A DNA stretch of 48,828 nt from a virus (taxonomy: Duplodnaviria > Heunggongvirae > Uroviricota > Caudoviricetes): IMG/VR virus record IMGVR_UViG_3300045988_154803. One strand, 5' to 3'. The notes under the pieces are model-generated. The model saw only the letters and a list, made by a program, of their open reading frames with translations, did no database searches and was not told the DNA's origin. A program made the translations under genes and the position numbers. Shown one piece after another: positions 648 to 48,828 of this stretch; within the stretch, counting starts at the first letter, position 1, and each line of letters begins with the position of its first letter.

Positions 648-955
648 GTTAGTTGTGCCTCCGGCGCTTATCTCCGGCAGTCATAACGCTGGTCAGCCCT
701 ACAGCAAACACAACGAAAAGGGCACTAACCAGACTGATTAATGCCCTTGCCTGTTGTGTGCCGGATATCGCCCGACAACGCTGTTTTGGTAACACGGCTA
801 CAGTTCCGCGCCGCTCCAGCTTTTACCCCTTTGCGGATAACAGGCCCTGCCTGTAACTTAGCCCCACGTTCGCCCGAAATGCGCACCAGGCACGCATAAA
901 GATGAGCACGAAGGAAGTAACTCCACCGCGCTTATCTTTATGTGTGAGAGTGAAT

Positions 956-1031
956 TGGTGGCCCCTACCGGATTTGAACCGATGACCGTGCGATTATGAG
1001 TCGCCTGCTCTAACCACTGAGCTAAGGGGCC
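956..1031 (-). tRNA. tRNA with CAU anticodon, ileX/ileY-like (probable tRNA-Ile2 reading AUA after lysidine modification; tRNA-Met not excluded)
   Basis: 76-nt cloverleaf read by hand: acceptor GGCCCCU/AGGGGCC, D arm GCUC-AGUGGUU-AGAGC, anticodon loop CUCAUAA, T arm AUCGG-UUCAAAU-CCGGU, 3' CCA; 5' half matches E. coli ileX as recalled. Confidence 0.85.
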
Positions 1032-1041
1032 ATATTTGATC

Positions 1042-1124
1042 TGTTTGTCTGGTGTGGCGCCGCGCACGAAAATCCCAGCCAATAAATTCAGGATTTTTGG
1101 GCGCGGCGGCATATCAGACAAACA
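1042..1124. repeat. Large imperfect inverted repeat (two ~34-bp arms, ~15-nt spacer) between lysis cassette and tRNA
   Basis: Arm tgtttgtctggtgtggcgccgcgcacgaaaatcc vs reverse complement of ggatttttgggcgcggcggcatatcagacaaaca; about 29 of 34 positions pair. Confidence 0.6.
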
Positions 1125-1200
1125 TGGTTGATGCGTGCGCTCATGAGAAAAGCGCATAGAATGTTGTAACTATATATTTATATAATTATAGAAATATATA

Positions 1201-1410
1201 TTACTTGGGGCAGTTGATTTCCCATGCCCTGTTATGAGCCAGAATATCTTTCTTTGTCTGGCGGTCCATAACATCGATATCGTGATCAGTCAGGTAGATG
1301 GGCTTTACCCAATCACAGGCGGTATCAACCACCACCGGGACGCTTCCACGACTCCCGCAGCTCGCGATCAACATCGTCATCAGCCATATGGTTAACACTC
1401 TGCTGTACAT
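1201..1410 (-). CDS. o-spanin (Rz1-like outer-membrane lipoprotein); true start probably internal (MTMLIASCG)
   Basis: Lipobox LIASC followed by short Pro-rich periplasmic segment; overlaps 3' end of the i-spanin in another frame. Confidence 0.55.
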   Translation of the reverse strand: MYSRVLTIWLMTMLIASCGSRGSVPVVVDTACDWVKPIYLTDHDIDVMDRQTKKDILAHNRAWEINCPK

Positions 1411-3193: not shown

Positions 3194-3637
3194 TTATATA
3201 TGTTCACGACTGGACTTCCAGAATATCCACGCCAGATCAACATTCGGGTCCTGGTAATTCATCCCTTCGTTGGCACGAAGCAATAATGTTTCATGGTCTT
3301 TATCACCCGCATGAAACCTGACAAGTGCTTCGAACTTTTCGCGACCATCATCCGGCACTACCGGCTCTGGTTGGATAGTGACGTTGGCAAAGGCAGCACG
3401 CAAACCGGCCTTAATTTCCTCTACTTCATCAGCGCCTAGCGATGAATCTGACAATGCGTGATGGAATGCGTAAGCCATGTCGTCGTTTACTGCAACCGGC
3501 TCGACTTCCAGCGCTGCCAGAGCAATTCGTGCCAGTTCTTCCGCTTCTTCTGCTGGCAGTACAACGTTGCTACTAGGTCCGTATGTTTCGCGCCACTGCT
3601 TGATTGTCAGTAGTCGCTCTTTGGTAATAGTAATCAT
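3194..3637 (-). CDS. Hypothetical acidic protein
   Basis: 147-aa ORF in early operon; no motif recognised. Confidence 0.45.
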   Translation of the reverse strand: MITITKERLLTIKQWRETYGPSSNVVLPAEEAEELARIALAALEVEPVAVNDDMAYAFHHALSDSSLGADEVEEIKAGLRAAFANVTIQPEPVVPDDGREKFEALVRFHAGDKDHETLLLRANEGMNYQDPNVDLAWIFWKSSREHI

Positions 3638-4227
3638 GCCGCGTTTCCTTCTTTCTTATTAACAATTACACCGTCATATATTTCATTAAGGTGCCCTCTC
3701 AACTCCATGCGCCTTAATGCAGATAACATGTAATCGCATTCAACCTGCTTATTTCCAGTAAATGGCTTATCGTCAGGATTACCCCAACAGCAATTTCCCT
3801 TGGGCCACCCATGTACTTTCCGTACTCTTCCGTTAACAACGTGAAGTAATCCCCAGCCGGGAGGTAAATCCTCAACTGAAATAATTCCCGGCTCACTAAT
3901 AAAGAATCGCCAGTCGCCCATGCCAAGTGAGGGATTTTTACGGAAACGCTTTTTGCTATCTGCCAACAAGTCAGCACGAGAACACTTTGCCTCTATCAGG
4001 CATGATGCTGAATTTCTGAATCCCATAGCATCTGGCTGTTCTCCGGTACTGGTTACAGCTATAAAGCGGTCATGAAAGCAAACCTTGAACCCGTTGCGCT
4101 TAAGGAACTTGTACGCAATCTGACAGAGTTCGCGGTGTGTTAACGCCATCTCACTCTCCTTTAGTGCGCAGATAACAGTGGTTTTTCCAGCGGTTTTGCG
4201 CCGCGCTGGGCTTTTTGCAAAAACCAC
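3634..4227 (-). CDS. Hypothetical protein, possible PD-(D/E)XK nuclease-like
   Basis: 197 aa; PDAMGF ... LIEAK arrangement resembles PD-(D/E)xK core; several Cys near C-terminus. Confidence 0.35.
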   Translation of the reverse strand: MVFAKSPARRKTAGKTTVICALKESEMALTHRELCQIAYKFLKRNGFKVCFHDRFIAVTSTGEQPDAMGFRNSASCLIEAKCSRADLLADSKKRFRKNPSLGMGDWRFFISEPGIISVEDLPPGWGLLHVVNGRVRKVHGWPKGNCCWGNPDDKPFTGNKQVECDYMLSALRRMELRGHLNEIYDGVIVNKKEGNAA

Positions 4228-5573: not shown

Positions 5574-5872
5574 GCCACAGCCCCTCTCAACGGCTTAACT
5601 TTGGCTAATAAGGTGTTAAACAACATGGAGTTAGGATTCATGCCAAATGGCAATTCCGGTTTAGCGGAGTAGTACAGGCAACCATTTATTTTCCTGGTTG
5701 TTATCTGTCCTTCGGCAACCATGCTTCTCAGTCTGCAACGCATAGAGTTCTGCGACACACCAATGTGCTCCGCGATTACGTCCACTTTTGAACATGGGTG
5801 ATCGGTCAGGAAATTAATCACATCTTGGGGGTTAATAATTTTGCGTTTCATTGTCGAGGCGTCCTTATACAT
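5570..5872 (-). CDS. Small winged-helix-like DNA-binding protein (candidate regulator)
   Basis: 100 aa; helix-turn-helix-like VIAEHIGVSQNSMRCRLRSMVAEG; preceded by AT palindrome promoter. Confidence 0.4.
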   Translation of the reverse strand: MYKDASTMKRKIINPQDVINFLTDHPCSKVDVIAEHIGVSQNSMRCRLRSMVAEGQITTRKINGCLYYSAKPELPFGMNPNSMLFNTLLAKVKPLRGAVA

Positions 5873-5897
5873 TTATATAAATATATAATTCTATATA

Positions 5898-10842: not shown

Positions 10843-10948
10843 ATTATAGATTTATATAATTATATAAAACGCTTTTCATCAGCCAAAAAGTTGGTTATGC
10901 TTACCTCGTTCTATAAATATAGATTTATAGAATTATATAACCAAACAC
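10843..10948. promoter_or_regulatory. parA upstream region with AT palindromes (candidate centromere/operator)
   Basis: Perfect 16-bp palindrome TTATATAATTATATAA at 10843-10858 and a related repeat CTATAAATATAGATTTATAGAATTATATAA. Confidence 0.5.
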
Positions 10949-16079: not shown

Positions 16080-16460
16080 TTACTTAACGAGGAATAAAAA
16101 TGGTTTATTGTTCGGCGGTGTAATCGGGGCTGGCTCGCTTTTGCTCATGCGATCAGTGTACCAGGCCAACTCCTTGTCAAAGTAAGCCTGATTAAAATAG
16201 GCCATGAATGTAGTTTCAAATCCATAACGACCGCTAATACGCAGCATCTGATTGCCGTTCTCTGTTTCCAGATATACCTGGGCACGTTCCTGATTCTCCT
16301 TCAGCCAGGTTAAAGCCTCATCGCATGAGGACACACGATACTCATCATCGTAGCAGTCATCGATGCGGCTTGAGGAAGAACGGCAAATCACGCCAACAGA
16401 ACCAGCCAGGATAGTTTGAATTTTAAGGAAAGCGTTTTTGCGGATTTTAATCATGCTCAT
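16080..16460 (-). CDS. Hypothetical protein (first gene after leader cassette B)
   Basis: 126-aa ORF starting exactly at end of conserved leader. Confidence 0.5.
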   Translation of the reverse strand: MSMIKIRKNAFLKIQTILAGSVGVICRSSSSRIDDCYDDEYRVSSCDEALTWLKENQERAQVYLETENGNQMLRISGRYGFETTFMAYFNQAYFDKELAWYTDRMSKSEPAPITPPNNKPFLFLVK

Positions 16461-16580
16461 CGGGTTATCTCCGGTTTAACCAGGGCGGGTATCGCTCGGT
16501 TTCGGGTATAACCTTAGGAATTTTTTTCCCACCTGTAAAGCACTTTTTATATAAATATATAATTATATAATTCTATGAGC
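16461..16580 (-). promoter_or_regulatory. Conserved promoter/5' leader cassette, copy B
   Basis: Near-identical to copies A and C; palindrome TATATAATTATATA at 16556-16569. Confidence 0.6.
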
Positions 16581-18732: not shown

Positions 18733-19713
18733 TTAATGTTGGAGTGATTTCCAGGTCTTTCTTAGCCTGTTATAACGCTGCTCAACGAGGGATCGTAAAT
18801 ATGCAAGGTCAGCACCTGGATACATGCCATCAGCAAATTCCTGGCTAACCTCTCTAGTGATTTGATGACGAAGTTCGGCCTCTCCCTTTTCCTGAACAAG
18901 ACGCGCAGCTCTCTCCGCTGCTTTCTGTTTTGCCTTTATCTCTCTGGCCGTCTTCCTCTGACGCCATACATTCTCCATCTGCTCCTGAATAACAATACGC
19001 TTATAATCAGCCTCCGTTATCGCTTTTTTAAGCCGTTCGCTATTCTTCGCATTGAAGTAATTAAGTTTCTGGCTAACCGCACGTCTCCATGCTTGTTCAG
19101 TAATACCAACGATTTCCAGCAGTTGATCACGAATCTCTATTTTCGCTGGCCAATACTGTTTATTCACCCGATCCCAGCGACGTTCATAATCAATAAAACC
19201 TAACGCTTTCAGTTGCGACAACGCCCTTGTACAGCGCGTTATAGACTTGTTCCCAGCTTCGGATACGGTAGACAGGCCGCAAAAATCAGCCAACGCCTCA
19301 GCACTGGCCAGAACCCGCTTAGAAATGATGTTTACATGGTGCAAAATCGCAGCAATCACAGCATTAATCGCCCGACGACGATGCTCGTTTATCCGGCGTT
19401 TCCGCTCTGACGGTTGATTAACGTAGAACGCAACCTCACACGTAAGATCACGACCATTAATGCGCTGTAAAGCATCAGATAACACCAGCGGCAGCTTGTG
19501 CGTATGGTGCTTTGGAGGCTGGAACTCCGGCGACAAATTACAAACGTAAGCTGAACGTAGAGACGGCATTGGTCTATCCATATGTTCGCTCTTGCGTCCA
19601 CGGAAAACCAACGTATAATGGGAGTTGTCGAGGCGCCCATGGATTGTTTTTGTTGGTTTTCCGTGGATGTCGCAAGAAGCCCGCAGATTTATCTGCGGGC
19701 TTTTTGTTTCCAT
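18733..19713 (-). CDS. repA: IncFII-type RepA replication initiator (RepA1-like); true start possibly internal
   Basis: RRRAINAVI...GLSTVSEAGNKSITRCTRALSQLKALGFIDY aligns by eye to R1/R100 RepA1 block RRRAIDALL...GLATESAAGKLSITRATRALTFLSELGLITY (recalled). Confidence 0.8.
   Translation of the reverse strand: METKSPQINLRASCDIHGKPTKTIHGRLDNSHYTLVFRGRKSEHMDRPMPSLRSAYVCNLSPEFQPPKHHTHKLPLVLSDALQRINGRDLTCEVAFYVNQPSERKRRINEHRRRAINAVIAAILHHVNIISKRVLASAEALADFCGLSTVSEAGNKSITRCTRALSQLKALGFIDYERRWDRVNKQYWPAKIEIRDQLLEIVGITEQAWRRAVSQKLNYFNAKNSERLKKAITEADYKRIVIQEQMENVWRQRKTAREIKAKQKAAERAARLVQEKGEAELRHQITREVSQEFADGMYPGADLAYLRSLVEQRYNRLRKTWKSLQH
19679..19710 (+). terminator. Plus-strand intrinsic terminator antisense to repA 5' region (candidate CopA-like RNA 3' end)
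   Basis: gcccgcag-atttat-ctgcgggc followed by TTTTTGTTT. Confidence 0.4.
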
Positions 19714-29153: not shown

Positions 29154-31938
29154 AACTTAATCTCCGTTGTTGGAACATATGAGCACTCAATTTCTTCTCA
29201 AAATCAGAATATCCCGCATCTAATGCTCTTTTAGCTGCCGCCTCAGTTTCCTTTGGTGAACCAGCCGGAAGATTGATTACAGGTGAATAGGTTATTCCAC
29301 CAGTCACAGCATTAACGTTCTGGCGAGGTCCAGAAGTCCCGGCGGCAGATATCCCGTGAGGTGATAAATTTGATTGCCCGAACTTGGTTGCTATTGCATT
29401 CTGTAAGCTGTTATTCCTGCTAACGCCTGATGCCAGAGTAGTCATTATTGCACCACCTGACTTTGTTAGCTGTGAGAATGGACCTTTTTTCGCGTCAGAG
29501 AACGGTAAATACTCACGTACAGAAGAAAAAACGCCTTTCACTTCATTAATTAAAGCATTTGCTTTTGATTTTATCCCAGTGATTAACGTCTCAATTATTT
29601 TTGCGCCTGACTCACTCCAGTTTATTCCAGACAAATAAGCCGTTACAGATTGGAATGCTCTTATAAAGAGTCCAACTGGTGAAAAACGCATAAAAACAGA
29701 TACCAGTGTATCTATGATTTTCTTTCCTGTTTCGCTCCAGTTAATACCAGAAAGGTAATTTGTTGTAAGTTTAAATGCTTTAATTAAGAACGGAAGCGGA
29801 GACATCCATTTAAAAGCACTAATTAATGTACTGTAAATTCTTACTCCTGCCGAACTCCAGTTTATGTTGGAAAGATAATCCCATGCTTTACCAAACATAG
29901 ATATAATCCATCCATTGAGATCAAAGTTTAAGATAAAGTTTTTTATAGCTTCAAACGATTTAACTGTATATTCCTTAACAGAAGGCCAAACTCTGACAGC
30001 ATAATCTCTGATCTTATCCCAGTTCTGATAGAGCAATATTCCTGCGGCAACCAGCGCAGATATAGCCATCTGAATCCACCCGAAGGGTGTTAGCTTTGTC
30101 GCTACAGATAAAGCCAGCATAGCTACCCTACACGCTATAACCACACTTTTCATGGTTAGAAACGCACCTGCCGCCATCACAATCTGAGACACAAAATTGG
30201 GGTTGTTAGCTACAAATTCACTAATTTTTGTAATCAGCGGAACCAAAACACTAAGCGCGGCATTCAAAGCAGGTTGCAAGGCCTGACCAAAACTTAATGA
30301 TGCATTGCTAGCCTGAATACGTAATTGTTTCAATCGCTCCGCATTGTCTTTCGTTATGTTGGCAAAATCGCGGTCAATAACAGCACTTCCAGCACCAAGA
30401 GATGTTGCTTTGATTCTCTGGTATTCCTTCCAGTTTTGAATCATCGGACGAACAAAGTTCTGAACCTGCATATCGCCAAATAGCTCACCAAGTAACTTCT
30501 GATCTCCGTTCTTAGTCATTTTCATGACAGAATGCATTGCAGCTTCGAATGGATTCTTCCCTTTTTTCTGCGCTGTTGTGACAATTTTATATAAATCTAC
30601 ACCGAAATTTTTCTTTGCTTTTTTTAGTGTTTCAGGGGAAAGTATTTTCGCCAAAAAGTTGTTCATATTATTAGCAGCCTCATCCGAAGTTGCAGCACCT
30701 TTGCGAGCTATCTGCAAAGCTGCCCCCATCGTCGCGGCGGCTTCTTTACCTCCCATTTTTAATGCCTGGAACTGAGCACCAAGCACAGGAAGATTTTTGG
30801 CCATATCTTTAAATTCAAAGTTTCCCTCTTTCCCTGCCTGAACCAGAATCCCCATTGCAGACTTCATTTGAGATGGATCAATCTTCAATGAGTCACTTAA
30901 TGTAAATGATGCTTTCGAGACATCGAGGATATCAGAGCCAGTAGCTGTAGCTGTTCGCCCAATAGTTAGTAGATTCGCCTGAGCCTCTTTATAATCCTGC
31001 CCAGCAGCGACGAGAAAACCCTGAGCGGCCTGAATATCAGATGCAAACTGGTTGGTGGCCGTTCCGGTAACAAGCATCGCCTGCCCCATCGCCTGAACTT
31101 CTTCCGGCTTCATATCTGCCGTAAGACCAATCATTTTGTTTTCACGATTGAAATTTGCTGCATTGTTAGCAGCAGCAAATGCACCAGCCGCTACAGCACC
31201 AGTTTGTAATCCTGACCTTACAAGTTGACTCTTTGCCTCACCAAGATGCTCTCGCTTCAATTCACGCTGCCTTTCCAACGCGCGGTTTAACTCCTCCTGA
31301 GCACGTTTTACTGCAAGAACATTTTTCCGTGCTTCAGCCAACGCATTTTTATAGCTGTTAATTTTATCAATACGTTGTTTTTCTAATGCCCGGTTAAGTT
31401 CCTCCTGCTGTTTTTTCACTTGCTGAACATTTGCTCTGGCTAAAGCCAAAGCCGTTCTGTAGCGGTTAACCTGCTCAACGCTACGGACCTGAGCCTCACG
31501 ATTACGATCAATGCTGGCTTTAAGCTCTTTCTCTCTTGAGGCCAAAGCTCTGGCAGATGTATCAGCTCCCTGATAGGCAGACTTTAAAGCGGCCAGTTCT
31601 TCACGCTGAGAACGTAGTGATGCTCGTAAATTCGATGAATGTGTTTTTGCCTTCTCAAAGTCACGAAGCATCGCTCTGGTTGGATTGGCCGTGTTTTTTA
31701 TTTGCTTCTGTAACTCTTCAACGCGAGCGGCAGCTTTATGATATTCGAGGGCAGTCTGTCCAACCTTTACTTTTACAGATTGTAGCTTTTGAATTTCCCC
31801 ATGTTCTTTCGTTAATCCAGCAAGCTCGGCATTTAATTTAGCAACAGCCTGATTAGCTGTAGTAAAACTTTTGGGGAGAGAGGCGGCAACTTTGCCGCCA
31901 ATTTCAAAAGCCAGCTTAAAGTTCTTATTGCTGGCCAT
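29146..31938 (-). CDS. Tail tape measure protein
   Basis: 930 aa; N-terminal coiled-coil repeats, central hydrophobic segment, size and position after chaperone. Confidence 0.9.
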   Translation of the reverse strand: MASNKNFKLAFEIGGKVAASLPKSFTTANQAVAKLNAELAGLTKEHGEIQKLQSVKVKVGQTALEYHKAAARVEELQKQIKNTANPTRAMLRDFEKAKTHSSNLRASLRSQREELAALKSAYQGADTSARALASREKELKASIDRNREAQVRSVEQVNRYRTALALARANVQQVKKQQEELNRALEKQRIDKINSYKNALAEARKNVLAVKRAQEELNRALERQRELKREHLGEAKSQLVRSGLQTGAVAAGAFAAANNAANFNRENKMIGLTADMKPEEVQAMGQAMLVTGTATNQFASDIQAAQGFLVAAGQDYKEAQANLLTIGRTATATGSDILDVSKASFTLSDSLKIDPSQMKSAMGILVQAGKEGNFEFKDMAKNLPVLGAQFQALKMGGKEAAATMGAALQIARKGAATSDEAANNMNNFLAKILSPETLKKAKKNFGVDLYKIVTTAQKKGKNPFEAAMHSVMKMTKNGDQKLLGELFGDMQVQNFVRPMIQNWKEYQRIKATSLGAGSAVIDRDFANITKDNAERLKQLRIQASNASLSFGQALQPALNAALSVLVPLITKISEFVANNPNFVSQIVMAAGAFLTMKSVVIACRVAMLALSVATKLTPFGWIQMAISALVAAGILLYQNWDKIRDYAVRVWPSVKEYTVKSFEAIKNFILNFDLNGWIISMFGKAWDYLSNINWSSAGVRIYSTLISAFKWMSPLPFLIKAFKLTTNYLSGINWSETGKKIIDTLVSVFMRFSPVGLFIRAFQSVTAYLSGINWSESGAKIIETLITGIKSKANALINEVKGVFSSVREYLPFSDAKKGPFSQLTKSGGAIMTTLASGVSRNNSLQNAIATKFGQSNLSPHGISAAGTSGPRQNVNAVTGGITYSPVINLPAGSPKETEAAAKRALDAGYSDFEKKLSAHMFQQRRLSFG

Positions 31939-32921: not shown

Positions 32922-34385
32922 TTATTCAGAAAACAAGTTCAGCAGATAATCAGGATTATATTCCATGACGAACTCTATATCTCTGGCAGGTGAGAATGGT
33001 GTCATTTTTACATGGAATTTAACAATCCCGTCCATCAATGACGTAATCGTGTTTTCAGATTGATCAAAGGTAACAACACCACCTGCAATATCCTGATTAC
33101 CTGTGAGGCCGTTAAGCCAAATATTCGCACTTGTAACAATCGATTCAATTAATCGACGGTTTGCAGGATTGTCTATTTTTGACCAATGCGAAAGAATTAA
33201 CGTATTACCCACCCAGTTAAACATACGTCGGCAAACACGAAATGCGTCTTTGGGGTCTGTAGATGTTGGATAAATAGCATTACGGTTTCCCCATGATTTC
33301 CAACCATCAAAATTAAGGCTTGTTACAATCCCCTGTCCATTTAAGTAGTTTGCCTGGCTAATGTTAAGCCATACTTCACTGCCATCTTTACGTACAGCAC
33401 CGTCCATCTGTAGTTTTATATTTGACGGAGAACGTGATGGAATATCACCATACTGACTATCCAGCAAGCATGTTGCGGCCGCTAAATGGGTTGAGTGATG
33501 GTAAATATTGTCACCAAGTTTCACCATCGGCCAGCACACTGTCTGGTTAGCGGCCATGTGATTATTGTTCTGTTTCCATTCAGGAACAGCCGAGTAATCA
33601 CTGATAGTAGATTTATCGGTCGGTGCATCAGTTATGGCTTCTGCTTTGAACAATTCACTAATCAACGCGGCTTTAGCCGCCATTAGCTGACCAACTTCAC
33701 TATCAGAACTAAATCCAGGCGCAATCACTTGTCCAGGAACCAACTTGAAGCGGGGATACACATCAGACAGTAACTCAAGCCCTGTATTGGCTTTAGTGTT
33801 GGAATCCACACCACCGATAATGTCATTTTTAGTTACGGCACCGGGATCAAGATGCGTATAACTAACCTTAAGAGTAGCGTCTTTTTCGGTAATTTTTCCT
33901 CCGCTAATAGCGGTAATGACCGTATAGCCATTATCATCCAGCGCCAGCACATAATCGGTGTCAACCGTTAATCCTGCCGAATCACCATCTGCTTTTTTCA
34001 CAACAACAGATTTATATAAGACACCATCGTTAGAGAGCGTACCTTTCCCGCCAGAAAGTTTTACTACCTCATCAGTTACGTCTTTCTTATGCTTTGCTGG
34101 ATCAAGCACATTAATAAATACAACTGGCGCAACACCATATATTCCAAATGCGACTTTAATTACTTCGCTTAAAGTATATTTCTCGAAGTTTGTGCTATAT
34201 CCTATTTTAGATACGGCCTCTGCGTATGTATAAGCAATGATAGGTTTATTTACCGCTGAGGCTGGATCTTCTAACTGATTAACAGGAGCTGTACCAAATG
34301 CGACAATCAACCCAGCACTAACTTGTACTGGAGGAGTTATAGATGTAGCCAGCTCAGATATATAAATACCGTGGCGATATCCCAT
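32922..34385 (-). CDS. Contractile tail sheath protein (P2 FI-like)
   Basis: 487 aa; position and size. Confidence 0.85.
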   Translation of the reverse strand: MGYRHGIYISELATSITPPVQVSAGLIVAFGTAPVNQLEDPASAVNKPIIAYTYAEAVSKIGYSTNFEKYTLSEVIKVAFGIYGVAPVVFINVLDPAKHKKDVTDEVVKLSGGKGTLSNDGVLYKSVVVKKADGDSAGLTVDTDYVLALDDNGYTVITAISGGKITEKDATLKVSYTHLDPGAVTKNDIIGGVDSNTKANTGLELLSDVYPRFKLVPGQVIAPGFSSDSEVGQLMAAKAALISELFKAEAITDAPTDKSTISDYSAVPEWKQNNNHMAANQTVCWPMVKLGDNIYHHSTHLAAATCLLDSQYGDIPSRSPSNIKLQMDGAVRKDGSEVWLNISQANYLNGQGIVTSLNFDGWKSWGNRNAIYPTSTDPKDAFRVCRRMFNWVGNTLILSHWSKIDNPANRRLIESIVTSANIWLNGLTGNQDIAGGVVTFDQSENTITSLMDGIVKFHVKMTPFSPARDIEFVMEYNPDYLLNLFSE

Positions 34386-37351: not shown

Positions 37352-38440
37352 TTAATTTTTATCGCGGTTTTTAAATACTGACCCAATAACATTTTTTACT
37401 ACTTCAGCTTGTTTATCTCCGTTGTTTTCTGGTTGATTAACATCAACTGAATCATTCACCTCATTTGCGTCTTCTTGCCGTTGATTAAGAAAGTTTTTGT
37501 TACGCGCTCGCTCTGCATTCATAATTTCCAAAGCAAGTTCAGCCGCAGAAACTCCCGTTTTGAATTTTGCATTCTTAACCAGGTCGTCATGACCTGGAAT
37601 CACGCTATTCTCGATTGTTTCAATGCGCTCGCGTTCTGATTTAACGCCCTCGTCTTTACCAGCATTAAAAACCTGATTGTATAATTCTGGATGTTTATTT
37701 TTTAATTCATCAAGAGTCACAACATCGTCCTCATTTTGTTCATTTAATTCAGTAGATAATTCATTTTTATTTTGTGGCAACTTTGCGAGCGAATCAGGTA
37801 ATTTTGAAAACCTTGATGCTTCAAAAGTTATTCCATTGAGCGAAAGCATCCCTTCCTTTATAGAAGCGGATAAGCGCATTGGTTTTTCAACTTCGTCAGC
37901 AAATCCAAGCTCTACAGCCTCTTCTGCATTTAGCCATGTTTCCTGATCCATTAGTTCAATTAATTTATCCTCAGAAAGCCCTGTTTTCTCCTTATATGCA
38001 GATAAAATACTATCTCGTATCTTATCCATCATCTCAGCAATATCACGTAGTTCATCCGCATCACCAGCAGCAAATGTCCACGGATTATGGATCATCATCA
38101 TAGCATTAGATGGGATAACAACTTTATCACCTGCCATTGCAATAATGGTTGCAGCCGATGCAGCAATACCATCAATATAAACAGTAATATTAGCCTTATG
38201 ACGTTTTAATGAAGAAAGAATAGCTTGAGCAGTAAAAACAGAACCACCATAACTATTAATTTTTACGTTGATAGCATTTGATGATATATCCTTTAATTTA
38301 TTAACTATGTCAGAAGAAGAAACCTCATCAAATTCGCCAATATATCCGTAGATTAAAAGTTCAGCCGGAGAGTCATCTTCACCCGTGCTATTTTTTATTT
38401 CCCACCAATTAGGCATCATCTGTCTCCATATTTTGTTCAT
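37352..38440 (-). CDS. Head maturation protease/scaffold (S49/ClpP-like, lambda gpC-like)
   Basis: INSYGGSVFTAQAILSSLKRHKANITVYIDGIAASAATIIAMAGDKVV protease core; acidic C-terminal half. Confidence 0.85.
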   Translation of the reverse strand: MNKIWRQMMPNWWEIKNSTGEDDSPAELLIYGYIGEFDEVSSSDIVNKLKDISSNAINVKINSYGGSVFTAQAILSSLKRHKANITVYIDGIAASAATIIAMAGDKVVIPSNAMMMIHNPWTFAAGDADELRDIAEMMDKIRDSILSAYKEKTGLSEDKLIELMDQETWLNAEEAVELGFADEVEKPMRLSASIKEGMLSLNGITFEASRFSKLPDSLAKLPQNKNELSTELNEQNEDDVVTLDELKNKHPELYNQVFNAGKDEGVKSERERIETIENSVIPGHDDLVKNAKFKTGVSAAELALEIMNAERARNKNFLNQRQEDANEVNDSVDVNQPENNGDKQAEVVKNVIGSVFKNRDKN

Positions 38441-39983
38441 TTACCTCAGAAACAGGAGGCGTAATCAGCCCCAACTCACGGCGAGCATTCTCTTCTCTGC
38501 CACAAATTTGTGCGGTTTCTTCCCAGTTAAGACCTGACATTTCAGCCGCTTCCTTTTCACGGGTAGAGAATGTTTCCTCAACACGCAGTTTTGCAGCTTT
38601 GACTTCTTTAAGGGGATCTAATTGGCCTTGTGATGGGCCATACCATTGAGCGCCACTCCATGCAGCGCGATATTCAGGCCCATAAAAAAAACCAGGGGCA
38701 ATAACACGACCTTTAGCAACGGCTTCGGCCAACCATTCCTCATAGATCGGTTGGCAAAATGACTGAACCATCCAGTCACGTCGCATACGGAACATTTTCC
38801 AGGCTTCAAGTAATGCGACCCTGCTTGCGCTATAACTTGCTGTAAAATGCTTTACCAAGAGTTCGTAAGGGAGTTCTAAAGCAGCCCCAATTTGACGGCA
38901 TATGGCGACAACAAAACCATCAAATGCCGTATTTGGTCGCCCGGGATTTGCTGTATCTATCGACTCACCTTCACCCAAACTTACTATGGAGCCATTCCCC
39001 ATTTCTTGGGTGTTATCATCATGGTTATCGATCTGCTCGTACTGAGGGATACCCGATTCACCGACTGGTCCATCAGGAGCGTCTGTTTTAATAAAGACAG
39101 TAAACATCCCTGACACAACCGCAGCAACCAATTCAGCATCGGTGTATCGTCCTAACTGCTTCAATGCTTCAATAACAGGAGCAAGGACAGGAACGCCACG
39201 ACGTTGCCCAGGCCTTTCAAAATCCTGCATGACATGCAGAATATTTCTTCTTCCTGTTTTACTCCCATATGCGGGAATACGTTCCCACTTGCGGGTTACA
39301 AAACCAGAAGTCCCGGCTGGGTGATGTTTTGCAACCCAGTACGCCACAGGCTCGCTAAATTCACCAACCTCTACGCCACCGTAAAGATTTGGTATAAAAC
39401 GATCCTCTGGATTGCAAACACGATCACCTTCAATTAAATAGACGCACAAATCATATATAACACCCTTACGCTTAATAACTGGTAGCGCAGCAAATATATC
39501 GCCAGATGTTAACGCAGATATTTGGACCAATGATTGCAATTGTCCAAAAGTACACATTCTTGATGCATCACAATTTGGAGAATCAGCCCATAATCTAAAC
39601 TCACGCTCAACATGCTTTTCCCATGCTCGCGCTTCTTCCTGCGTCATCCCCAAGAAATCGGCATCAATGTTCGCATTTAGTTTTAAACCGGAACCAACAA
39701 CGTTTGTCCTGATAGTTTTTATTGCGCCAACCGATAGCGGGTTTCCCATGAAGAGATCACGAGAACGCTCACGCAATTTATCTATATTTTTAACAATATC
39801 ATCATCAGGAGAACCAGCTTTACTAAACCAACCCCTTAATGATTTTTTATGAGTGCTTGCACCATGACGTGAATATCCAAGGTTATTAATACCTTCAAGT
39901 GCTTCTAACCGTTTTCTTGCCAAAGCTCGATTTAATGCCCTCTGAGGTGAAAACGGCGCAATAACTCGATCAAGAATATTCAT
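38409..39983 (-). CDS. Portal protein (lambda gpB-like)
   Basis: 524 aa; between gpW-like and protease. Confidence 0.8.
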   Translation of the reverse strand: MNILDRVIAPFSPQRALNRALARKRLEALEGINNLGYSRHGASTHKKSLRGWFSKAGSPDDDIVKNIDKLRERSRDLFMGNPLSVGAIKTIRTNVVGSGLKLNANIDADFLGMTQEEARAWEKHVEREFRLWADSPNCDASRMCTFGQLQSLVQISALTSGDIFAALPVIKRKGVIYDLCVYLIEGDRVCNPEDRFIPNLYGGVEVGEFSEPVAYWVAKHHPAGTSGFVTRKWERIPAYGSKTGRRNILHVMQDFERPGQRRGVPVLAPVIEALKQLGRYTDAELVAAVVSGMFTVFIKTDAPDGPVGESGIPQYEQIDNHDDNTQEMGNGSIVSLGEGESIDTANPGRPNTAFDGFVVAICRQIGAALELPYELLVKHFTASYSASRVALLEAWKMFRMRRDWMVQSFCQPIYEEWLAEAVAKGRVIAPGFFYGPEYRAAWSGAQWYGPSQGQLDPLKEVKAAKLRVEETFSTREKEAAEMSGLNWEETAQICGREENARRELGLITPPVSEVNEQNMETDDA

Positions 39984-43791: not shown

Positions 43792-44511
43792 TTAACGAGA
43801 GAAGGTCTTAGAAAGAATGTCATCAATAGCCTTTGTGACTTCATCAGCAAACGCATCCTCACCAGCACGCAGCGCCACGCCATGCCAATCAAGACGCTGC
43901 GAATAGTTAGGTTGCTGGATAAACGTAAGGATCAACGTAGGACGCCGCCCAACGCGCTGCCAGACGCCTGGTTGAAGCGGGTTACTTGTACCAGGTCGAA
44001 CAACAAAAAACTCCGTAGGCTTGCCCTGACGGCGATTTTGATGCGCATCTCGCTGAACTCTTAGGCCAGATAAGACCTGCTGTAATTGCCCCCGCGAAAT
44101 ATTCCCGTATTTGTCCAGCTTTGCGCCGGGACCAGGAGCAAGCTGCCAGCCGTTAGGCAAATATCCACCAGCCCTTAGCGCCCCTTCTGAGCGTTTGTAC
44201 TGTCGTTGGCCACCTTCGATTTGCGGAGTCAACGTTACAGGGGCTGGCGTTCCTCCCCATTCACGAGCATACACAATGGCTGTAGGATCACTCTTCTTTG
44301 CGGCCAAAACGTAAGTAGAGTTCTGAATCCACGGCGTGGGCCTGTCAAATACCCGATTAATTTCATTCTTAATCGCAGCCTGAGAAGCCTTTGCCGTTCT
44401 GGTTGCCGCAAGCGCCATTGCGAACGGCAATTCGCGTTCTTCAAGGCGCTGGAGTTGTCGTTGAATATCCTGAGAAGAAAAATCCATCTTTATCTCAATT
44501 CTGTCAGCCAC
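43792..44511 (-). CDS. Hypothetical protein
   Basis: 239-aa ORF between methyltransferase fusion and non-coding region. Confidence 0.45.
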   Translation of the reverse strand: MADRIEIKMDFSSQDIQRQLQRLEERELPFAMALAATRTAKASQAAIKNEINRVFDRPTPWIQNSTYVLAAKKSDPTAIVYAREWGGTPAPVTLTPQIEGGQRQYKRSEGALRAGGYLPNGWQLAPGPGAKLDKYGNISRGQLQQVLSGLRVQRDAHQNRRQGKPTEFFVVRPGTSNPLQPGVWQRVGRRPTLILTFIQQPNYSQRLDWHGVALRAGEDAFADEVTKAIDDILSKTFSR

Positions 44512-44527
44512 CAGCGCCTCCTACACA

Positions 44528-45907
44528 CTACTTAATCAACGGCCGGAAAGCCGCCAGCACATCATCAGATCGTCCGATTGTTGAACCACCAGGCAACGGC
44601 AACTCAAACTCAAAACGAACAGCTTTCTCCAGACTCGCCCAACTAAGGGAATCATCGTTAATGACGTGCAAATACCAGCTCTTACAGTTGAATATTGACC
44701 GCTTAATCCTGAAACCATGTACACGACACAACTGCTTCACTTCATCATCAGAGTGAAACTTCTGGTAAAACCAGTGCCCCTTCCGGTACAACGCGGTAAA
44801 ACCGTTATGATCAATAAAATAAAGCCGGCTTTTGGAACTCGCCGCTTGTGTTTGCTTCAGGACTGTTTCCAGCTCTCCACGGCTACGACCAGAAAAGAAT
44901 ATTGACCCACCAGCTTTACACAGGCCTTTTAGAACCGTCAGAACGGACCATTCAGCCTCGACACTATCGACCGAGTTCAAAACGCTATCGCAAATCACGT
45001 AGTCGTAACGCCCTCGCGTTTTTAAGTCGTCCACCAGCGTATCAATCATCCGGTTTGTTGCGGCCCTATCCAGAGTGTTTCCAGCGCCCTTACGGCGGAA
45101 AAGCTCGAGATCATGCAGGTTATATCCCTTTGCCCTGAGCATTCGCGCGTAGTCTCCCTGCCCCGAACCAAAATCAATTCCTCTTGGCGTCTTGGCAATG
45201 ATCGGGAGGATCAACGACTCATACAGATTTGATTTCAGGCTGCCACCATTACGCAACCGCATAAGCTGCGCATACGTCTGGATGTATGTTGTTTTCTCCA
45301 GATGAGAATACTCAAATACACCATAAGTTTTATTCAGATAACTTTGGTATTTTTCCTTCTCAACATCAGGGATCACAAACACCGTTAGCGGTGTGCGCGT
45401 CATTTTCGCTGCTAATGCATACTGAGCACAGTGAATAACCTCACCAGACTGAGTAGCAACACAACCACCCCACGGACCATACTTGATAACCAGTTCCGCT
45501 ATGTTCTTTCGAACATATGCCATTTTCGCGCGCATATTGCCTGAGATCTGGCTTGCCGATACCTGAACAAAACCATGCTTATCTTCCAGACCGGACACCC
45601 TGCAACGCTCATCTCCGCTATCAAAATCCGTTCCGTTATGCAGTTGGTTAAACCGTACTTCGTCGTATACCGTCGTTTCACAGGGCAACACATACACCGC
45701 AGCACGCGTTATTCCCAACTTACGTAGCGCCTTCGTCCTTTGGTGTCCCGCCACCAGCAAATCGCCGCGCACTATCAATGGCTTCACAAGCCCCAGCTCC
45801 CTGACGCTTTCCGCCAGCCTCGCAAGATCATCCTCACCGATAAAACGCGGGTTATATTCCGCGCCGCGTAGGTGCGTTATGTCGTAATTGAGGTGAAGCA
45901 TCAGCAC
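44528..45907 (-). CDS. ParB N-domain fused to class I SAM-dependent methyltransferase
   Basis: N-terminal ...LVKPLIVRGDLLVAGHQRTKA (ParB-like); C-terminal GIDFGSGQGDYARML ... DYVICDSVL (Rossmann motif I/post-I); no DPPY/W motif. Confidence 0.65.
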   Translation of the reverse strand: MLMLHLNYDITHLRGAEYNPRFIGEDDLARLAESVRELGLVKPLIVRGDLLVAGHQRTKALRKLGITRAAVYVLPCETTVYDEVRFNQLHNGTDFDSGDERCRVSGLEDKHGFVQVSASQISGNMRAKMAYVRKNIAELVIKYGPWGGCVATQSGEVIHCAQYALAAKMTRTPLTVFVIPDVEKEKYQSYLNKTYGVFEYSHLEKTTYIQTYAQLMRLRNGGSLKSNLYESLILPIIAKTPRGIDFGSGQGDYARMLRAKGYNLHDLELFRRKGAGNTLDRAATNRMIDTLVDDLKTRGRYDYVICDSVLNSVDSVEAEWSVLTVLKGLCKAGGSIFFSGRSRGELETVLKQTQAASSKSRLYFIDHNGFTALYRKGHWFYQKFHSDDEVKQLCRVHGFRIKRSIFNCKSWYLHVINDDSLSWASLEKAVRFEFELPLPGGSTIGRSDDVLAAFRPLIK

Positions 45908-48400: not shown

Positions 48401-48666
48401 TCATCATCTCCTGCCGCACATACAACCTCACAAAAAACATCAGCGGAATGTTTCTTTTTGAATGAATGGCGCTCAAAACCGCACTCAATATCAGGCGCAA
48501 AAACATCCACCACATACGGTCTTTCAGAATGTTTGTTTTCCCAACGATAAACCGTAGTGACGTTGAAATGTTTTAACGCTTCACGGAACTCAACGCTGCC
48601 AGTCAGGTTTTTTGAGGTCAGGTATTGCAGGAGGTTTTTTACTACTTCACGGTCTTGTACTTTCAT
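48397..48666 (-). CDS. Hypothetical protein (first gene after leader cassette C)
   Basis: 89-aa ORF starting exactly at end of conserved leader. Confidence 0.45.
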   Translation of the reverse strand: MKVQDREVVKNLLQYLTSKNLTGSVEFREALKHFNVTTVYRWENKHSERPYVVDVFAPDIECGFERHSFKKKHSADVFCEVVCAAGDDE

Positions 48667-48785
48667 CGGGTTATCTCCGGTTTAACCAGGGCGGGTATCG
48701 CTCGGTTCCGGGTATAACCTTAGGAAATTTTTTCCCACCTGTAAAGTACTTTTTATATAAATATATAATTATATAATTCTATGAC
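48667..48785 (-). promoter_or_regulatory. Conserved promoter/5' leader cassette, copy C
   Basis: Near-identical to copies A and B; palindrome TATATAATTATATA at 48762-48775. Confidence 0.6.
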
Positions 48786-48828
48786 ACTTGCCAGAGAGCA
48801 TCATGCAATTGGATACCTCCATTGCACT
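48771..48828. repeat. Terminal overlap identical to 52-109
   Basis: Direct comparison. Confidence 0.9.

Follow-up and report, generated by a model that had tools for sequence, protein, structure and literature searches.

A family of myovirus-type phage-plasmids carries, at the boundary between the lysis cassette and variable cargo, a conserved and unannotated hairpin of a general kind that is already known, namely, a structured intergenic stem-loop of a phage operon. The hairpin is part of a 160-bp junction module in which an AT-rich block, a short linker, and an 83-nt stem-loop follow the last lysis gene. Comparison of diverged variants indicates that the stem is conserved with compensatory changes. 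The stretch of DNA analyzed here (hereafter, the window; 48,828 nucleotides, IMG/VR record IMGVR_UViG_3300045988_154803) contains the hairpin at positions 1042-1124.

A highly stable stem-loop next to the lysis genes

An inverted-repeat search places the left arm at 1042-1075 and the right arm at 1091-1124, each of 34 nt and complementary to the other at 29 of the 34 positions (85%), with a non-palindromic 15-nt spacer that forms the loop (1076-1090); none of these features is assigned to a strand. When folded as RNA, the + strand forms a single unbroken stem-loop (-56.0 kcal/mol, z = -10.0, with 0 of 200 shuffles reaching this stability), and the minus strand forms the same helix with internal loops (-40.3 kcal/mol, z = -5.9). 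In a scan of both strands with 100-nt sliding windows (mean -20.7, sd 6.5), the hairpin is the most stable fold of the 48.8-kb genome. The palindrome is real and forms an unusually stable stem-loop, so that the extended hairpin of the original prediction, with its arms and 15-nt spacer, is borne out exactly, and secondary-structure prediction yields a strong fold on both strands. The predicted stems on both strands would be of sufficient length for an RNase III site (at least ~20 bp), provided that they form within a transcript.

A scan of positions 600-1700 for a stem followed by a T-run detected no intrinsic terminator at 1042-1124 on either strand, in agreement with the initial remark that the hairpin lacks a U-run. 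No T/U run lies within ~2 nt of the stem, whose flanking sequence is GATCAAATAT on the minus strand and TGGTTGATGC when read on the + strand. The assignment as an intrinsic terminator was therefore rejected, given also that such terminators have a compact stem with a loop of 3-8 nt, as opposed to the 34-bp stem and 15-nt loop found here. Neither is the hairpin part of a protein-coding ORF: the overlapping + strand ORFs differ in both start and stop between the Escherichia coli and Salmonella types of the element, and the identity of the overlapping peptides (~61%) is lower than that of the nucleotide sequences (~78%), which argues that the hairpin is not coding. In a search of Rfam at permissive thresholds with the window and two Salmonella loci, no family reached its gathering threshold. 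The only matches in the window were generic long-hairpin miRNA models at 34.2 and 30.7 bits (thresholds 86 and 70), and the Salmonella locus gave a miRNA-type match at 29.3 bits (threshold 102). No second copy of the hairpin was found in the window.

The lysis cassette on one side of the hairpin and the tRNA on the other are as originally described. The cassette is encoded on the minus strand and consists of holins, a GH108 endolysin, and two overlapping spanin-like ORFs, the last of which ends at 1201. A strong intrinsic terminator on the same strand (2854-2827, an 11-bp stem followed by T9) is located ~20 nt before the holin start codon, and the ORFs upstream of the holins (3194-3637 and 3634-4227) contain no Pfam domains. 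This organization suggests, by analogy, a lambda tR'-like layout in which an antiterminated late transcript would traverse the lysis genes and the hairpin and continue past the tRNA. Because the tRNA is encoded on the minus strand, the region must be transcribed, either through or from within.

Distribution of the module in the phage-plasmid family

Judging from its ends and gene content, the window is a circular phage-plasmid of a ~48-kb family. Positions 1-51 are an untrimmed Illumina Nextera i5 adapter, and positions 52-112 repeat positions 48768-48828, which indicates a circular assembly; the circle was broken at a repeated AT-rich promoter-like block. The gene content includes RepA, ParA, a RelE/ParE toxin-antitoxin pair, P2-like tail genes, and a lambda gpA-type terminase. 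We also noticed a perfect inverted repeat with 16-nt arms 39 nt apart (19597-19612 and 19652-19667) at the 5' end of the repA ORF, in a region that is likewise among the strongest-folding segments of the genome. The hairpin is unlikely to be a cos site, given that the terminase genes lie ~6-8 kb away and the Yersinia phage record begins just upstream of them.

The hairpin was detected at 71 places in 70 of the 5,426 complete E. coli genomes, and 70 of these places are on this plasmid type; the strain ATCC 25922 is among the carriers of the phage-plasmid, and its plasmid NZ_CP009073.1 has the hairpin at 31,458-31,561. PLSDB contains ~58 near-identical plasmids from E. coli, E. albertii, E. fergusonii, and Klebsiella aerogenes, and the Yersinia phages vB_YpM_39, 41, and 44 are near-identical replicons that also carry the hairpin. 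A blastn search against 72,556 plasmids identified the module in 61 PLSDB plasmids and returned only the phage-plasmid family; for comparison, a terminase with at least 80% identity is present in 62 PLSDB plasmids. Each replicon has one copy, always in the same context, and no similar sequence was found outside the family among these plasmids or among 50,697 phage records. Among the matches listed, pattern scans of IMG/VR and metagenomes yielded only further E. coli-type copies and one new Salmonella-type variant. At 33 loci of other Enterobacterales that encode homologs (63-83% identical) of the MT-A70 methyltransferase located beyond the tRNA, blastn and a de novo fold scan revealed neither the hairpin nor the AT motif; thus, the module is specific to the phage-plasmid family. 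A Klebsiella plasmid with a similar spanin gene lacks the hairpin, and the phages 4HA13 and AAM22, which were retrieved by tblastn with the spanin, are unrelated and contain no comparable element. Our search of the literature found nothing on the hairpin element or on the Yersinia phages.

Compensatory changes in the stem

The 15 aligned copies of the hairpin from the E. coli clade vary at two sites, both in the right arm: 1093 A>G, which produces a G.U pair on the + strand, and 1102 C>G, which breaks a pair. Such near-invariance says little about selection. The informative relatives are three Salmonella plasmids, from serovars Weltevreden and Concord and from subsp. salamae (L030, L065, and L066, respectively), and one metagenome contig. 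The Weltevreden plasmid encodes a terminase 88% identical to that of the window, and its homologous DNA is ~75% identical. In the Salmonella types, a hairpin of 83 nt with arms of 33-34 nt and a 15-nt loop occupies the same position as in the window, directly after a different lysis cassette (lysozyme and another spanin-like ORF) and a near-identical AT block.

Across the eight distinct variants, pairing extends to 90.4% of the alignment cells on the + strand, as against 84.9% on the minus strand; the loop has 15 nt in all eight. Four pairs have changed on both sides with the pairing preserved, a covariation that comes from two lineages only, the E. coli type and the Salmonella type, and hence from few independent events. 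In a control in which the 3' partners were slid by 1-3 columns, pairing fell to 27-49%. RNAalifold recovers the helix, with a consensus energy of -44.9 kcal/mol on the + strand and -30.4 kcal/mol on the minus strand. The hairpin that was first noticed in a single sequence is, in this comparison, conserved in the diverged Salmonella relatives, with compensatory changes.

Between the E. coli and Salmonella types, identity is 93-96% in the AT block, 44-50% in the linker, 76-85% (about 80%) in the hairpin arms, and 60% in the loop (9 of 15 bases), compared to 74-77% in the flanking homologous DNA. Thus, the arms evolve near the background rate and yet stay complementary. The homology block that includes the hairpin (1039-1200, 77% identical) lies between a non-homologous lysis cassette and non-homologous cargo. 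Within the arms, the outer positions 1-10 and the inner positions 28-34 are conserved in sequence, and in the middle of the stem, the structure is better conserved than the sequence. The copies from Weltevreden and Concord have asymmetric arms. In S. salamae (CP053324.1), the left arm carries three substitutions in four adjacent bases (GCCGCC to GGTGAC) that make it perfectly complementary to its partner; this triple change would fit a single template-switch correction of a quasi-palindrome, for which selection need not be invoked.

Polarity of the pairing

Purine-pyrimidine mismatches occur at six positions among the eight variants, and all six read as G.U on the + strand, which makes them C.A on the minus strand. 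One of these wobble pairs is the intermediate of a C-G to U-A replacement, again with the wobble only on the + strand; the other mismatches are purine-purine on the + strand. For the six pair positions, which represent at least 5 independent events, the bias has a two-sided binomial p of ~0.03. At 4-fold degenerate sites, the mutational skew favors G and T on the minus strand, so that mutation bias predicts the opposite of the observed wobble pattern. As a control, the minus-strand terminator at 748-718 carries its wobble pairs on the minus strand. The pattern argues for intrastrand pairing rather than recognition of a duplex, with the + strand favored.

All neighboring genes, the tRNA included, are on the minus strand. 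Together, the wobble bias and the consensus energies imply that the better-preserved strand of the hairpin is antisense to every known gene in the region. No conserved promoter or 3' signal was found on the + strand, and scans of both strands for the sigma-70 consensus revealed no conserved match. The Salmonella hairpin contains a promoter-like site, which was dismissed because it is missing from the E. coli type.

Variable cargo at the base of the stem

The tRNA(CAT) gene (956-1031, minus strand), which PGAP annotates as tRNA-Ile (Ile2 type) in related plasmids, has its 5' end 10 nt from the base of the hairpin and is lineage-specific cargo outside the conserved module. The Weltevreden, Concord, and salamae loci, one of which is a complete 47-kb plasmid, contain no tRNA. 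Conversely, the tRNA segment (956-1036) is 94-97% identical to segments of 90-100-kb E. coli plasmids that lack the hairpin, and the tRNA gene is also found without the hairpin in phages. These E. coli plasmids are P1-like in size, which suggests recent horizontal exchange of the tRNA gene alone. Because the hairpin is retained in Salmonella relatives that have no tRNA, the tRNA appears to be swappable cargo, and processing of the tRNA precursor, one of the roles initially proposed for the hairpin, does not hold up as its conserved role. A long-range leader-trailer helix around the tRNA was also discarded as it is predicted in the E. coli type and in no Salmonella type.

The homology between the E. 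coli and Salmonella types ends ~5 nt past the base of the stem and resumes at 883; the segment 883-1039 is not homologous to the Salmonella plasmids. The cargo also includes, directly beyond the 3' end of the tRNA, a second imperfect inverted repeat (891-946, no strand assigned; 25-nt arms, 80% complementary, 6-nt loop), so that the tRNA is bracketed by hairpins. In the Weltevreden plasmid (44055-44245), a 190-bp segment with its own 17-nt inverted repeat, missing in Concord and salamae, begins ~9 nt from the hairpin base. Further on, a second indel, of ~105 bp, distinguishes Weltevreden from Concord and salamae. As judged from the compared loci, the base of the stem coincides with repeated cargo turnover. 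The recombination hotspot that had been offered as another candidate role gains circumstantial support from the three cargo junctions or indels that lie within about 5-10 nt of the stem base.

Past 883, the homology runs on through a conserved non-coding region (648-883, minus strand) and the MT-A70 methyltransferase gene downstream of it. The non-coding region contains the intrinsic terminator at 748-718, and positions 44852-44932 of the Weltevreden plasmid are its structural counterpart; upstream of MT-A70, it is the structure of the terminator, not the sequence, that is conserved in the Salmonella plasmids. Just downstream of this terminator, both lineages show a weak rydB-like Rfam match of 24.7-25.7 bits (gathering threshold 50), at 650-705 in the window (minus strand) and at 3244-3307 in the Concord and salamae loci. 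At 856-882, the ATCC 25922-type copies, which are otherwise ~99% identical, differ by ~15 substitutions and an indel, and such dense changes point to a short tract acquired by recombination within the non-coding DNA that separates the cargo from MT-A70.

The AT-rich block and the linker

The other components of the junction module, also without an assigned strand, are the linker (1125-1158) and the AT-rich block (1159-1203). The linker includes a small GC hairpin at ~1137-1155, in place of which the Salmonella copies have a palindrome with 14-nt arms. The AT-rich block is quasi-palindromic and promoter- or operator-like, and overlaps the stop codon of the last lysis ORF. It reads TAGAAT-N18-TATAAT rightward on the + strand and shows a parA-like register leftward, that is, towards the hairpin, from which it is always ~35-45 bp away.

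A 21-mer from this block, TATAATTATATAAATATATAG, occurs with up to 3 mismatches at six loci in the window (1170-1201, 5865-5888, 10844-10864, 10917-10937, 16547-16575, and 48753-48781), where 0 are expected by chance, and at seven equivalent loci in the Weltevreden plasmid (30365, 33283, 33979-34010, 38169-38200, 39397-39420, 43888-43919, and 45574-45597). The majority of the copies lie just upstream of gene starts, two of them upstream of parA, and several copies of the block precede a duplicated leader of ~95 nt. The 21-mer probably represents a shared promoter or operator, or else a dispersed centromere-like site for a global regulator. Dispersed operators of partition-linked global regulators are known from the RK2 KorB, pSM19035 omega, and N15 SopB sites, which the AT block recalls. 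Different genes are preceded by duplicates of a ~130-bp promoter-plus-leader segment, in which the AT block is followed by AAGTGCTTTACAGG... and then by the start codon (~16440-16580 and 48660-48790 in the window; near 30340-30480, 38150-38290, and 45555-45690 in the Weltevreden plasmid). At other copies of the block, GC-rich hairpins precede it in the sense of the downstream gene, and the hairpin described here shows the same layout when read on the + strand. None of the other AT-block copies is accompanied by a comparable long palindrome.

Possible functions of the stem-loop

We tentatively favor, short of confidence, an RNA stem-loop that serves as an RNase III-type processing site or a barrier for 3' stability where the lysis message gives way to the downstream cargo, and we leave the strand open. 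RNA processing or stability is ranked first because the hairpin appears to be selected for structure, shows no terminator features, and lies where transcription is required for expression of the tRNA and the late genes. The stem-loop would act as a folded single strand, most probably, RNA, with a long, mismatch-interrupted double-stranded stem that lacks a U-tract, of the kind that RNase III can cut and at which 3' exonucleases can stall. Such a stem would demarcate the lysis message from the cargo, that is, the tRNA-Ile2 gene in the window and other non-coding DNA in the Salmonella relatives, and could define or protect the RNA ends at this boundary. Cleavage by RNase P at the tRNA 5' end, 10 nt past the stem, would leave an upstream RNA that ends in the hairpin. 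Transcription of the hairpin and the strand concerned, as well as the action of RNase III or exonucleases on it, are what we infer here.

Long imperfect intercistronic stems in T7 and lambda are established RNase III or 3'-stabilizer sites, although susceptibility to RNase III is not reliably predictable from sequence. The T7 R1.1-type sites and lambda sib resemble the hairpin in that each is a long imperfect stem between phage cistrons, without a U-tract and conserved in structure. The hairpin, for which transcription and cleavage are predicted, differs from them in pairing better on the strand antisense to the operon and in being a single element tied to an AT-rich operator-like block.

In an alternative that is possible but distinctly less probable than processing of the lysis message, the functional molecule is a + strand antisense RNA, whose transcription would start either on the cargo side or at the inverted AT-rich block that lies downstream of MT-A70. 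The hairpin would form the stable structure at the 3' or 5' end of this RNA, or would regulate the late or tRNA transcript as a cis-antisense element. All six wobble-type mismatches pair on the + strand, in opposition to the skew at 4-fold sites; the consensus energy is lower on this strand; the control terminator keeps its G.U pairs on its own strand; and the placement of GC hairpins before AT blocks fits a hairpin read in this direction. However, the wobble statistic comes from six events (two-sided p of ~0.03), no + strand gene is found nearby, the upstream + strand flank is variable cargo without a conserved promoter, and no U-tract follows the + strand stem. The same strand-specific G.U pattern is not predicted if the palindrome is bound as duplex DNA by a dimeric or multimeric protein, such as a regulator of the AT promoter/operator or, at an accessory site, a partition or ParB-like protein, with the mirrored arm changes reflecting co-evolving half-sites. 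The sequence conservation of the outer and inner parts of the arms, the constant spacer, and the proximity (~35-45 bp) of a near-invariant AT block whose other copies mark operon starts, among them that of parA, would all be compatible with such a site, but the 34-bp arms are much longer than usual half-sites, the other AT-block copies lack a palindrome of this kind, and the Weltevreden and Concord copies tolerate asymmetric arms, so that we consider it unlikely. Also improbable, in our assessment, is a functionless quasi-palindrome at a module boundary, kept by intrastrand template switching and carried along with an essential AT block. The arm identity little above that of the flanks, the clustered salamae change that perfects the palindrome, and the persistence of the pair-breaking 1102 C>G in two E. 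coli plasmids would agree with this reading. Long palindromes are, however, normally prone to deletion, and this one has been kept in nearly all members of the family despite ~20% divergence, with a loop of constant length and a wobble bias that is one-directional and opposite to the mutational skew.

A folded single-stranded DNA site, whether it serves as a priming signal, as an oriT-like hairpin, or in the structure-specific recombination by which cargo is exchanged, would likewise be expected to show several features observed here: strand-specific pairing, a mid-stem that preserves structure over sequence, and cargo junctions or indels (three different ones) next to the stem base. This seems quite unlikely, given that no relaxase was detected and MOB-suite classifies all 61 module-bearing plasmids as non-mobilizable, that the PGAP annotation of the E. 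coli-type phage-plasmid shows neither an integrase nor an HUH protein, that nothing elsewhere in the plasmid and phage records searched resembles the element, that the stem base (GTTTG...CAAAC) does not match the attC pattern RYYYAAC...GTTRRRY, and that no GC-skew switch, the sign of an origin or terminus, is present at the site. A related proposal, in which a strand-specific folded-DNA (or antisense-RNA) site together with the AT block forms a portable slot for the capture and swapping of payload, attC-like but with no recombinase known, is a long shot. The least probable of these readings is a dedicated processing signal in the 5' leader of the tRNA precursor or an unusual intrinsic terminator: on the strand of the tRNA, the hairpin does precede the tRNA 5' end by 10 nt, but it is kept where the tRNA is absent, the same tRNA occurs elsewhere without it, and the missing T-runs and large loop speak against termination. 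Maturation of the tRNA in the E. coli lineage could nevertheless use the hairpin incidentally.

Comparison with known palindromic elements

Several known types of elements share individual features with the hairpin. Intrinsic terminators are likewise GC-rich intergenic stems at operon ends but differ in stem, loop, and T-run, and proper terminators are present nearby at 748-718 and 2854-2827. The attC sites of integrons are imperfect palindromes of similar size, with strand-specific pairing, structure conserved above sequence, and variable cargo at the base; the hairpin, however, has no R''/R' core consensus (its stem base reads TGTTTG...CAAACA), is present in one copy without a cassette array, and the annotation of the complete E. 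coli plasmid lists no integrase, so that this identity was rejected. REP/BIME, ERIC, and MITEs are imperfect palindromes in non-coding DNA as well, and were excluded because the hairpin is single-copy per replicon and confined to one phage-plasmid family. The telRL site of N15-type phage-plasmids is a large palindrome in a phage-plasmid of similar size; here, the dyad is split by an asymmetric spacer of 15 nt, and the relatives are circular replicons in which no protelomerase has been annotated, which rules out this assignment. Known plasmid oriT and ssi sites were dismissed on the strength of the blastn search, which returned only the phage-plasmid family, and of the non-mobilizable classification. 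Resemblances to dif/cer-like, parS-like, and nic-site-like sequences, noticed by eye, are not conserved between the lineages.

Implications for the biology of the phage-plasmids

The phage-plasmid is common: ~1.3% of the complete E. coli genomes carry it, among them that of the reference strain ATCC 25922, and it is also found as free Yersinia phages. As ATCC 25922 is widely used, the question of the strand is testable with existing strains and, probably, with existing RNA-seq data. Given the polarity of the pairing, an antisense transcript that has escaped annotation, or a function of single-stranded DNA, is possible. Should the module prove to be a cargo-capture site, it would represent a new route of gene acquisition in phage-plasmids. 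A selected structure at the boundary between lysis genes and cargo would help explain how a very long late transcript is processed and how accessory cargo, such as a rare-codon tRNA, is expressed.
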